Below are positions 12,291 to 13,528 of a stretch of DNA of 19,823 bases, piece by piece (the first letter of the stretch is position 1; each line of letters begins with the position of its first letter). A program made the position numbers and the translations under genes. Source of the stretch: a virus (taxonomy: Duplodnaviria > Heunggongvirae > Uroviricota > Caudoviricetes); IMG/VR virus record IMGVR_UViG_2585427795_000005, one strand, 5' to 3'. Under the pieces are notes generated by a model. The model saw only the letters and a program-made list of their open reading frames with translations. It was not told the DNA's origin and did not search any database.

Positions 12291-13528
12291 GCGAGTTGAG
12301 TTATCTGGAAAAATTGCTGGATGGGGTTGAGGTTGAGTGGGTACCTGTATCAGAACTATTTCAAATTAAAAATGGGTATACACCTTCAAAATCCAAGAAA
12401 GAATTTTGGGAGAATGGAACCATTCCATGGTTCAGACTAGAAGATGTCAGAGTCAATGGTAGGGAATTAAATGATTCTATCCAACACATAAATCCATTAG
12501 GAGTTAAAGGTTGTCTGTTCCCGAAAAACTCTATTTTCATGTCTACAACAGCTACCATTGGGGAGTATGCTTTAGTAAGGGTCCCTTATTTAACAAATCA
12601 ACAAATCACAAACTTTTCCATTTCTGAAAAATTCAGTGAAGCGGTCAATATAAAATATATTTTTTATAGGTTTTATGATTTCGGCAAGTGGTGTACGGAG
12701 AATGCTAATAAAAGTGGTGGAGTATCTATAATTGGACTCAAAAAACTGTCTCAATATCAGTTCCCAATCCCTTACCCGGATAATCCGGAAAAATCCCTTG
12801 CCATCCAGTCTGAAATCGTTCGGATTCTGGATAAATTTACTGCACTTACCGCTGAGCTTACCGCTGAGCTTACCGCTGAGCTTAACATGCGTAAAAAACA
12901 GTATAACTACTATCGCGACCAGTTGTTGAGTTTTAAAGAGGGCGAGGTTGAGTGGAAAACTTTGGGAGAAGTGGCTCAATACTCGAAAACAAGAATTAGT
13001 TTCGAACTACTTGATGAAAGGAATTATGTTGGCGTAGATAATCTGCTGCAAAACAGAGCAGGAAAATCATTATCTAATCATGTACCGACATCAGGTAAAT
13101 TAACGGAGTTTATACCTAACGATATACTGATTGGGAATATCCGCCCATATTTGAAAAAAATTTGGCAAGCAGATTGTATCGGTGGAACAAATGGCGATGT
13201 ATTGGTTATTCGTTGCATAGATAGCTCAATAAATACCAGATATCTATATCAGATTTTGGCAGATGACAAATTCTTTGAATACAACATGCAGCATGCTAAA
13301 GGAGCAAAAATGCCGCGTGGCAGTAAAGAGGATATAATGAAATACCCAATCCCTGTACCGCCACTCACCTTGCAAGCTCGCATTGTCGAAATACTCAACA
13401 AATTCGATACCCTGACAAACTCCATCACCGAAGGTCTTCCGCGTGAAATCGAGTTGCGCCAGAAACAATACGAATACTACCGTGATTTACTGTTCAGTTT
13501 CCCGAAGCCTGAAACTGTAAGTAATTAA
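12287..13528 (+). CDS. hsdS: Type I R-M specificity subunit HsdS (type IC), with three TAEL repeats in the central conserved region
   Basis: 413 aa; conserved N-terminal, central ([28 protein letters not shown]...[15 protein letters not shown]) and C-terminal ([35 protein letters not shown]) blocks flank two AT-rich target-recognition domains. Confidence 0.93.
12845..12884 (+). repeat. Three tandem copies of the 12-bp unit CTTACCGCTGAG plus a partial fourth, encoding (L)TAEL x3 in HsdS
   Basis: Perfect direct repeats at 12845..12856, 12857..12868 and 12869..12880. Confidence 0.95.

Follow-up and report, generated by a model that had tools for sequence, protein, structure and literature searches.

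A reassorted type IC hsdS gene on a P1-like Escherichia coli phage-plasmid and the AT-rich composition of its target-recognition domains

The hsdM-hsdS-hsdR operon and its P1-like setting

A combination of ORF calling and Pfam searches placed three genes on the plus strand of the window, the term used here for the whole 19,823-nt stretch of DNA that was analysed: hsdM (10728–12290), hsdS (12287–13528) and hsdR (13650–16766). hsdM encodes a type IC N6-adenine methyltransferase subunit of 520 aa (Pfam N6_Mtase and HsdM_N) that matches the EcoR124II M protein (7bst_D) over its full length, residues 1–520, with 1150 bits. The specificity subunit encoded by hsdS, a mosaic gene, has 413 aa and matches Pfam Methylase_S in two stretches; its scaffold matches EcoR124 HsdS (7bst_A) with E = 5e-84. 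hsdR encodes a translocase/nuclease subunit of 1038 aa with HSDR_N, SWI2_SNF2, T1R_D3-like and EcoR124_C domains, the last with a Pfam E-value of 1e-71, and it too is matched over its full length, residues 1–1038, by its EcoR124 counterpart (2w00_A, 2273 bits). The hsdM stop and hsdS start codons overlap as ATGA. A gap of 121 nt separates hsdS from hsdR, and a consensus scan of this gap found no convincing promoter. By consensus scan only, a putative terminator-like hairpin with a 10-bp stem and a T run was located 3' of hsdR (16960–16982, plus strand). Rfam gave no match anywhere in the window.

The operon has the organisation of a type IC system. HsdM and HsdR resemble their EcoR124 counterparts in sequence, and HsdR has the EcoR124-type domain at its C terminus; hsdM and hsdS are coupled, with hsdR separate downstream; and HsdS starts and ends within a conserved helix, carries two target-recognition domains (TRDs) and has a central block with TAEL repeats, the HsdS organisation described for type IC enzymes (PMC3874165). 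Type IC was historically defined by complementation or subunit exchange and by antibody cross-reactivity. Both would very likely be found with EcoR124 subunits, because the M and R subunits and the S scaffold are near-identical in sequence. The features of a phase-variable (invertible or shufflon-type) hsdS locus were not found: the window has a single hsdS and no second Methylase_S ORF, and between 10300 and 17100 the sole pair of inverted repeats is 22 nt long and 82% identical, with no silent cassettes or inversion repeats.

The doc toxin gene of the P1 phd/doc module adjoins the operon on the minus strand (9950–10330), as annotated on near-identical plasmids and on phage phi456, and the operon was therefore assigned to a P1-like backbone. 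The window aligns over 91–95% of its length, at 95–98% identity, to plasmids of about 100 kb whose annotation includes ref, integrase (cre), C1 repressor, terminase, Lpa, DUF968, Doc and Phd; the P1 context genes are ref, cre, c1, pacAB, lpa and phd/doc. The right half of the window (12782–17266) is 99.55% identical to phage phi456, of the species Punavirus P1. Very probably, then, the region is the hsdS of a complete type IC operon (hsdM-hsdS-hsdR) of the EcoR124 family, carried by a P1-like (Punavirus) E. coli phage-plasmid, and its allele is a reassortant.

Apart from hsdS, the window has a second AT-rich stretch at 3540–4150 (GC at most 0.378 over 400 nt), located between cre (2338–3369, minus strand) and c1 (4515–5366). 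In P1 this interval would correspond to the lox/immunity region, and in a related plasmid it is interrupted by an IS1.

Anatomy and reassortment of hsdS

The borders of the hsdS blocks were determined by megablast against thousands of alleles from complete E. coli genomes and PLSDB plasmids, which yielded three conserved pieces and two non-matching gaps, all on the plus strand. The N-terminal conserved block (12287–12331) corresponds to a piece at hsdS nucleotides 1–46 that is present in hundreds of alleles. It is followed by TRD1 (12332–12760), by a central conserved block (12761–12970, piece 476–684) that forms the coiled-coil helix D1 and is the TRD1/TRD2 crossover site, and by TRD2 (12971–13372). 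The C-terminal conserved block (13373–13528, piece 1087–1242) forms helix D2, and residues 350–413 are nearly identical to EcoR124 HsdS. The preliminary description, made from the sequence alone, had set the two domains at 12340–12760 and 12960–13330, within about 10–40 nt of these homology-defined limits. The 10-residue motif that it had noted in the first domain was located at residues 39–48 (12401–12430, plus strand). The same motif class is found in EcoR124 TRD2 (EFWENGSIPW), in 1yf2 and, at either position, in 9 of 104 TRDs of other type IC loci. TRD1 and the central block are also overlapped in antisense by an ORF of 129 codons with a TTG start (12590–12979, minus strand), which Pfam did not match and which is in all likelihood spurious. 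HsdS residue 164 (12770–12775), which lies in the conserved PIPCPDNPEKS motif, is Tyr (TAC) in the window and Cys in EcoR124 HsdS, L001, L003, L004 and P0001, five comparison sequences of which the last four are introduced below.

Tandem Repeats Finder (TRF) identified a perfect 12-bp tandem repeat in the central block, CTTACCGCTGAG, present in 3.3 copies with 100% matches (12845–12884, plus strand) and encoding (TAEL)3. Two other alleles, L003 and L004, have two TAEL copies against the three of the window, and each shares one TRD with it. In EcoR124I and EcoR124II, two copies give an N6 spacer and three an N7 spacer, and the three-TAEL enzymes EcoR124II, EcoDXXI and EcoprrI all have N7 spacing (PMC3874165).

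The two TRDs were searched for separately, and each was found with other partners. Of 5,426 complete E. coli genomes, only 4 carry TRD1 (98.4–99.8% nucleotide identity), and so does one E. albertii plasmid; in every case the accompanying TRD2 differs from that of the window. TRD2 is commoner: 65 E. coli genomes have it at ≥99% identity, on the chromosome or on plasmids, together with other TRD1s. The two together were found in none of the 5,426 genomes or of 72,556 plasmids, and no record in the E. coli genome or plasmid collections covers ≥80% of hsdS. TRD copies in E. coli genomes are bimodal, either ≥98% or ≤77% identical with nothing between, as expected for cassettes; this is the distribution that recently spread cassettes would leave, and it does not fit a gradual divergence.

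The join between the two modules was mapped from single-nucleotide differences. Compared with the TRD1-sharing alleles L001 and L004, the window has 2 mismatches only in 12209–12771, while hsdM upstream is 5–7% diverged. Compared with the TRD2-sharing alleles, it has no mismatch in 12870–13681 (L003) or in 12959–14217 (L002). The nearest relative therefore changes within the central conserved block, at 12774–12958 on these maps. That the hsdS of the window is a recombinant, with TRDs that are separately exchangeable modules, is directly visible in these alignments. In all likelihood, a crossover in the central block brought a rare TRD1 together with a common TRD2 to give this allele, which has three TAEL repeats.

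The exact HsdS sequence of the window is absent from a collection of 15 billion proteins. The same TRD1+TRD2 allele is present in a single E. coli assembly at NCBI (L086), where 5 nt in 1.27 kb (99.6% identity) and 2 aa are different; the flanking hsdM and hsdR are 3–8% diverged from those of the window, and the upstream context is different. An NCBI E. coli protein, P0001, likewise differs from the HsdS of the window at 2 aa, one of which (E191A) is inside the first TAEL unit. The preliminary description had held that a single known HsdS matching both domains along its length would speak against mosaicism. P0001 is formally such a protein, but it represents the same allele in a different plasmid, with diverged hsdM/hsdR flanks, so the mosaic structure stands. 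As a whole-length match that would dissolve the mosaic, P0001 was rejected; it adds instead to the evidence for cassette exchange. These comparisons make the window a clean natural case of three nested units of exchange: one TRD alone, hsdS in its entirety and the number of TAEL copies.

Two relatives of the window have altered hsdS genes. The plasmid p02B17002_B (L085, NZ_JBVWFT010000002.1), otherwise collinear and P1-like, carries a half-size hsdS of 627 nt (208 aa; 13228–13854) between full hsdM and hsdR. It recalls the single-TRD homodimeric S subunits that read palindromes, such as EcoR124I(delta50) and NgoAV (PMC3874165). In the infectious P1-species phage phi456 (L088, OR339795.1; 2060–4497), an hsdS composed of an L002-type TRD1 and the TRD2 of the window is interrupted by a transposase gene of the IS5 family whose annotation as a baseplate hub protein is mistaken; judged from this interruption, the type I system of phi456 is probably specificity-dead.

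As homology to the solved EcoR124 complexes and the review literature show (PMC3874165), HsdS sets its two TRDs on an antiparallel coiled coil; the M2S1 complex methylates DNA, and R2M2S1 translocates and cleaves it. By this scheme, the globular TRD1 and TRD2 of the window would each read one half of a bipartite target, and the conserved helices of the N-terminal, central and C-terminal blocks would keep the TRDs apart and dock two HsdM subunits; once HsdR has joined, ATP would drive translocation, and unmethylated DNA would be cleaved. The conserved blocks, being near-identical among alleles, would serve as substrates for homologous recombination: crossovers in them would bring TRD cassettes into new combinations, and the spacer would change through slippage in the TAEL repeat of 12 bp. 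We infer that the enzyme of the window would be active. By analogy with EcoR124II and EcoDXXI, its target is expected to be an asymmetric bipartite site with N7 spacing, because the allele has three TAEL repeats; its half-sites would not be GAA and RTCG, because both TRDs differ from those of EcoR124. A prediction of the half-sites themselves was set aside: the sole characterised relative of TRD1 is the RTCG-reading EcoR124 TRD2, at low similarity, and TRD2 has none. The allele represents a rare specificity, its TRD pairing seen once in NCBI and absent from the genome and plasmid collections. A new methylation and restriction barrier in its hosts would follow, because this specificity is carried on a transmissible P1-like phage-plasmid.

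AT-rich composition of the recognition domains

The preliminary description had read the two variable domains as more AT-rich than the conserved segments, and computation bears this out. GC content is 0.345 in TRD1 and 0.378 in TRD2 against 0.444 in the conserved blocks (range 0.438–0.448), with 0.459 in hsdM and 0.434 in hsdR. TRD1 is the lowest-GC 429-nt stretch of the whole window (0.13% of such stretches are as low), and the GC of TRD2 is within the lowest 3%. The difference is largest at third codon positions, where GC (GC3) is 0.294 in TRD1, 0.328 in TRD2 and 0.31 in the two pooled, versus 0.50 in the conserved blocks (Fisher p = 2e-4). By block, GC3 is 0.60 in the N-terminal, 0.486 in the central (equal to its expectation) and 0.49 in the C-terminal block; the other P1 backbone genes in the window, pooled, have 0.498, the same as the hsdS scaffold.

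The contrast could be a by-product of amino-acid composition, with Lys/Asn/Ile-rich globular TRDs set against Glu/Leu/Arg-rich coiled-coil helices and no difference in history. GC1 is lower in the TRDs (0.419 vs 0.522), as this would require, but GC2 does not differ (p = 0.38) and the effect is mostly at third positions. As a control, the GC3 expected from hsdM and hsdR codon usage was calculated given the amino acid of each codon. TRD1 was observed at 0.294 against 0.500 expected (z = -5.2) and TRD2 at 0.328 against 0.510 (z = -4.5); together the TRDs fall 0.19 below expectation (z = -6.9), whereas the conserved blocks, observed at 0.500 against 0.499, sit on it (z = 0) and have the codon usage of hsdM and hsdR. 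The most extreme 140-codon stretch in hsdM/hsdR reaches only z = -2.7. The codon-conditioned deficit rules out amino-acid composition as the cause, and, with the same result in 52 of 52 other loci (below), this explanation is extremely improbable. The composition and codon-usage profile across hsdM, hsdS and hsdR is therefore not uniform, and the compositional mosaic of hsdS is real, sharp, far beyond chance and sited at synonymous positions.

The contrast was then compared across related systems. HsdM relatives with 79–92% aa identity were collected from 80 species of many phyla, hsdM being found by its NPPY motif. For the GC3 comparison, 53 loci with a recognisable type IC HsdS scaffold were used, and 52 for the amino-acid-controlled test. 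The GC of hsdM served as a proxy for host composition and the 3-kb flanks as a direct check.

Type IC HsdM proteins in this 79–92% range occur in Enterobacteriaceae, Chlorobiaceae, Planctomycetaceae, cyanobacteria, Campylobacterales, Victivallales and Cetobacterium, over a GC3 of 0.22–0.84. Such likeness over distant taxa points to an extremely conserved protein, extensive horizontal transfer, or a combination of the two. About 40% of the type IC loci, including L011, L013, L015, L016, L019–L022, L025, L027, L032–L035, L053 and L080, have hsdM and hsdS 190–2800 nt apart. Gaps of 550, 607–608 and about 1000–1160 nt are found repeatedly, a sign of inserted genes that are perhaps comparable to prrC in EcoprrI.

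TRD GC3 was lower than that of the conserved blocks in all 53 loci (sign test p = 2e-16) and lower than that of hsdM in 52 of them. With amino acids controlled, TRDs fell below expectation in 52 of 52 loci, with a mean deficit of -0.22 compared with -0.016 for the conserved blocks. TRD GC was also lower than that of the 3-kb flanks in 49 of 53 loci, while hsdM showed no such bias (22 of 53). TRD GC3 follows hsdM GC3 (rho 0.82, slope 0.50; scaffold slope 0.56), and the offset is present even in AT-rich hosts and larger in GC-rich ones (host GC3 0.22–0.84). In the type IA EcoKI hsdS of K-12, GC3 is 0.13–0.25 in the TRDs, 0.58–0.73 in the C-terminal conserved block and 0.65 in hsdM/hsdR. The contrast is an ordinary trait of the family, because it was seen in every related system examined, the K-12 gene included, and it is no sign of a special acquisition.

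TRD families are common to different phyla at up to 92% aa identity, for example between Salmonella and a deltaproteobacterial MAG, and in 146 of 311 related TRD pairs the two members occupy opposite positions in hsdS. The TRD1 of the window has distant relatives in EcoR124 TRD2 (E about 1e-10) and in the TRDs of M. jannaschii HsdS. Its TRD2 has 70–73% aa identity to the TRD2 of a Chlorobiaceae MAG and of Shewanella. Among related TRDs at ≥70% aa identity, GC3 shifts with the host (slope 0.45). On these sequence comparisons, TRDs behave as a shared cassette pool.

These data bear on the strict reading of the contrast, by which a GC-richer scaffold recently received both TRDs from a low-GC organism and the contrast is the unameliorated scar. 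The TRD GC3 of 0.31 is indeed far below that of hsdM, hsdR, the scaffold and the P1 backbone (all about 0.50), and TRD relatives are found in distant phyla. However, the same TRDs are ≥98–99% identical in other E. coli type IC alleles, which makes conspecific alleles the proximate donors; the contrast recurs in 53 of 53 loci whatever the host GC3, with TRDs lower than the host even where the host is AT-rich, and again in EcoKI; and TRDs do ameliorate, as the slope of 0.45 among related TRDs indicates. A simple unameliorated import from one AT-rich pool is also disfavoured because the TRD and scaffold slopes against host GC3 are nearly equal. The family-wide pattern largely refutes import from a low-GC organism, which we now consider highly improbable. 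The preliminary description had proposed that the domains were acquired by recombination from a source different from that of the scaffold: the exchange of modules and the recombinant nature of the allele are upheld, but AT-richness as the mark of that acquisition, or of a compositionally different donor, is not, because the immediate sources, plasmid and chromosomal E. coli type IC alleles, carry equally AT-rich TRDs. Compositional contrast inside hsdS is thus unfit as evidence of recent foreign acquisition.

A generic relaxation of constraint, with weakly conserved segments drifting to AT under mutation bias, would account for a universal deficit in hypervariable TRDs; no other part of the operon is less conserved. 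Constraint on the protein is, however, not expected to act on synonymous sites. In 504 aligned HsdM columns from 80 species, the GC3 residual showed no relation to amino-acid conservation (rho = 0.04, p = 0.42), and columns less than 50% conserved had a residual of -0.003. This flat result rules out relaxed constraint in general, leaving it improbable as an explanation, and ties the AT effect to the module rather than to the level of constraint.

It is highly probable, as part of the same explanation that covers the operon and its reassorted allele, that the AT-rich synonymous composition is an old intrinsic property of the TRD cassette pool of type I hsdS genes as a whole and was not imported with this recombination event. 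The most likely cause would be that TRDs are promiscuous accessory cassettes under AT-biased mutation, without the homogenising exchange that keeps the scaffold, hsdM and hsdR host-like. A candidate cause of the AT excess is that hypervariable cassettes lacking a homologous partner may be excluded from GC-biased homologous repair. If the bias has not yet been described systematically, the synonymous AT excess might show TRDs to be a pan-bacterial pool of cassettes with a mutational and recombinational regime of its own, a suggestion we regard as speculative and rather unlikely; if it were true, GC3 could delimit TRDs simply, without alignment. A literature search found no explicit prior statement that TRDs are AT-richer than the scaffold. 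Older papers may mention hsdS codon usage, and novelty of the family-wide bias is not claimed, as it may have been described earlier. The bias is an only mildly notable by-product of the analysis.

Comparison with known systems

The modular evolution of EcoR124-type systems has been textbook knowledge since about 1990. New type IC specificities arise through recombination in the conserved blocks and through changes in TAEL copy number (PMC3874165). TRD reassortment and TAEL-dependent spacing are thus already established, and the window adds a rare hybrid allele. Among its closest counterparts is the type IC prototype EcoR124I/EcoR124II of plasmid R124 (7bst–7btr, 2w00). The two have in common full-length HsdM (520 aa) and HsdR (1038 aa), nearly identical HsdS scaffold blocks, the order hsdM-hsdS, gap, hsdR and, with EcoR124II, the threefold TAEL repeat. 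They differ in both TRDs, the TRD2 of the window having no detectable EcoR124 counterpart, and in setting, since the window system lies on a P1-like phage-plasmid beside phd/doc and EcoR124 on an IncF plasmid.

TRD reassortment in type IC enzymes is known both from nature and from engineering, as in the EcoR124I x EcoDXXI hybrids of Gubler et al. 1992 (reviewed in PMC3874165). The allele of the window has the same anatomy; here the event was a natural one, inferred from allele comparison.

Domain movement (DoMo), in which TRDs shift position within hsdS, has been described in Helicobacter pylori by Furuta et al. 2011 (PMC3077401). The window offers a parallel in that its TRD2 has a relative at position 1, a TRD1 of Hydrogenovibrio with 52% aa identity, and its TRD1 has one at position 2, in an Eubacteriales MAG, alongside the cross-position pairs counted above. 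The movement traced here is across phyla in type IC systems, whereas that of Furuta et al. is within Helicobacter pylori.

EcoKI hsdS shares the compositional mosaic of the window, with a larger contrast. It differs in being type IA and chromosomal, with the order hsdR-M-S and no TAEL repeat.
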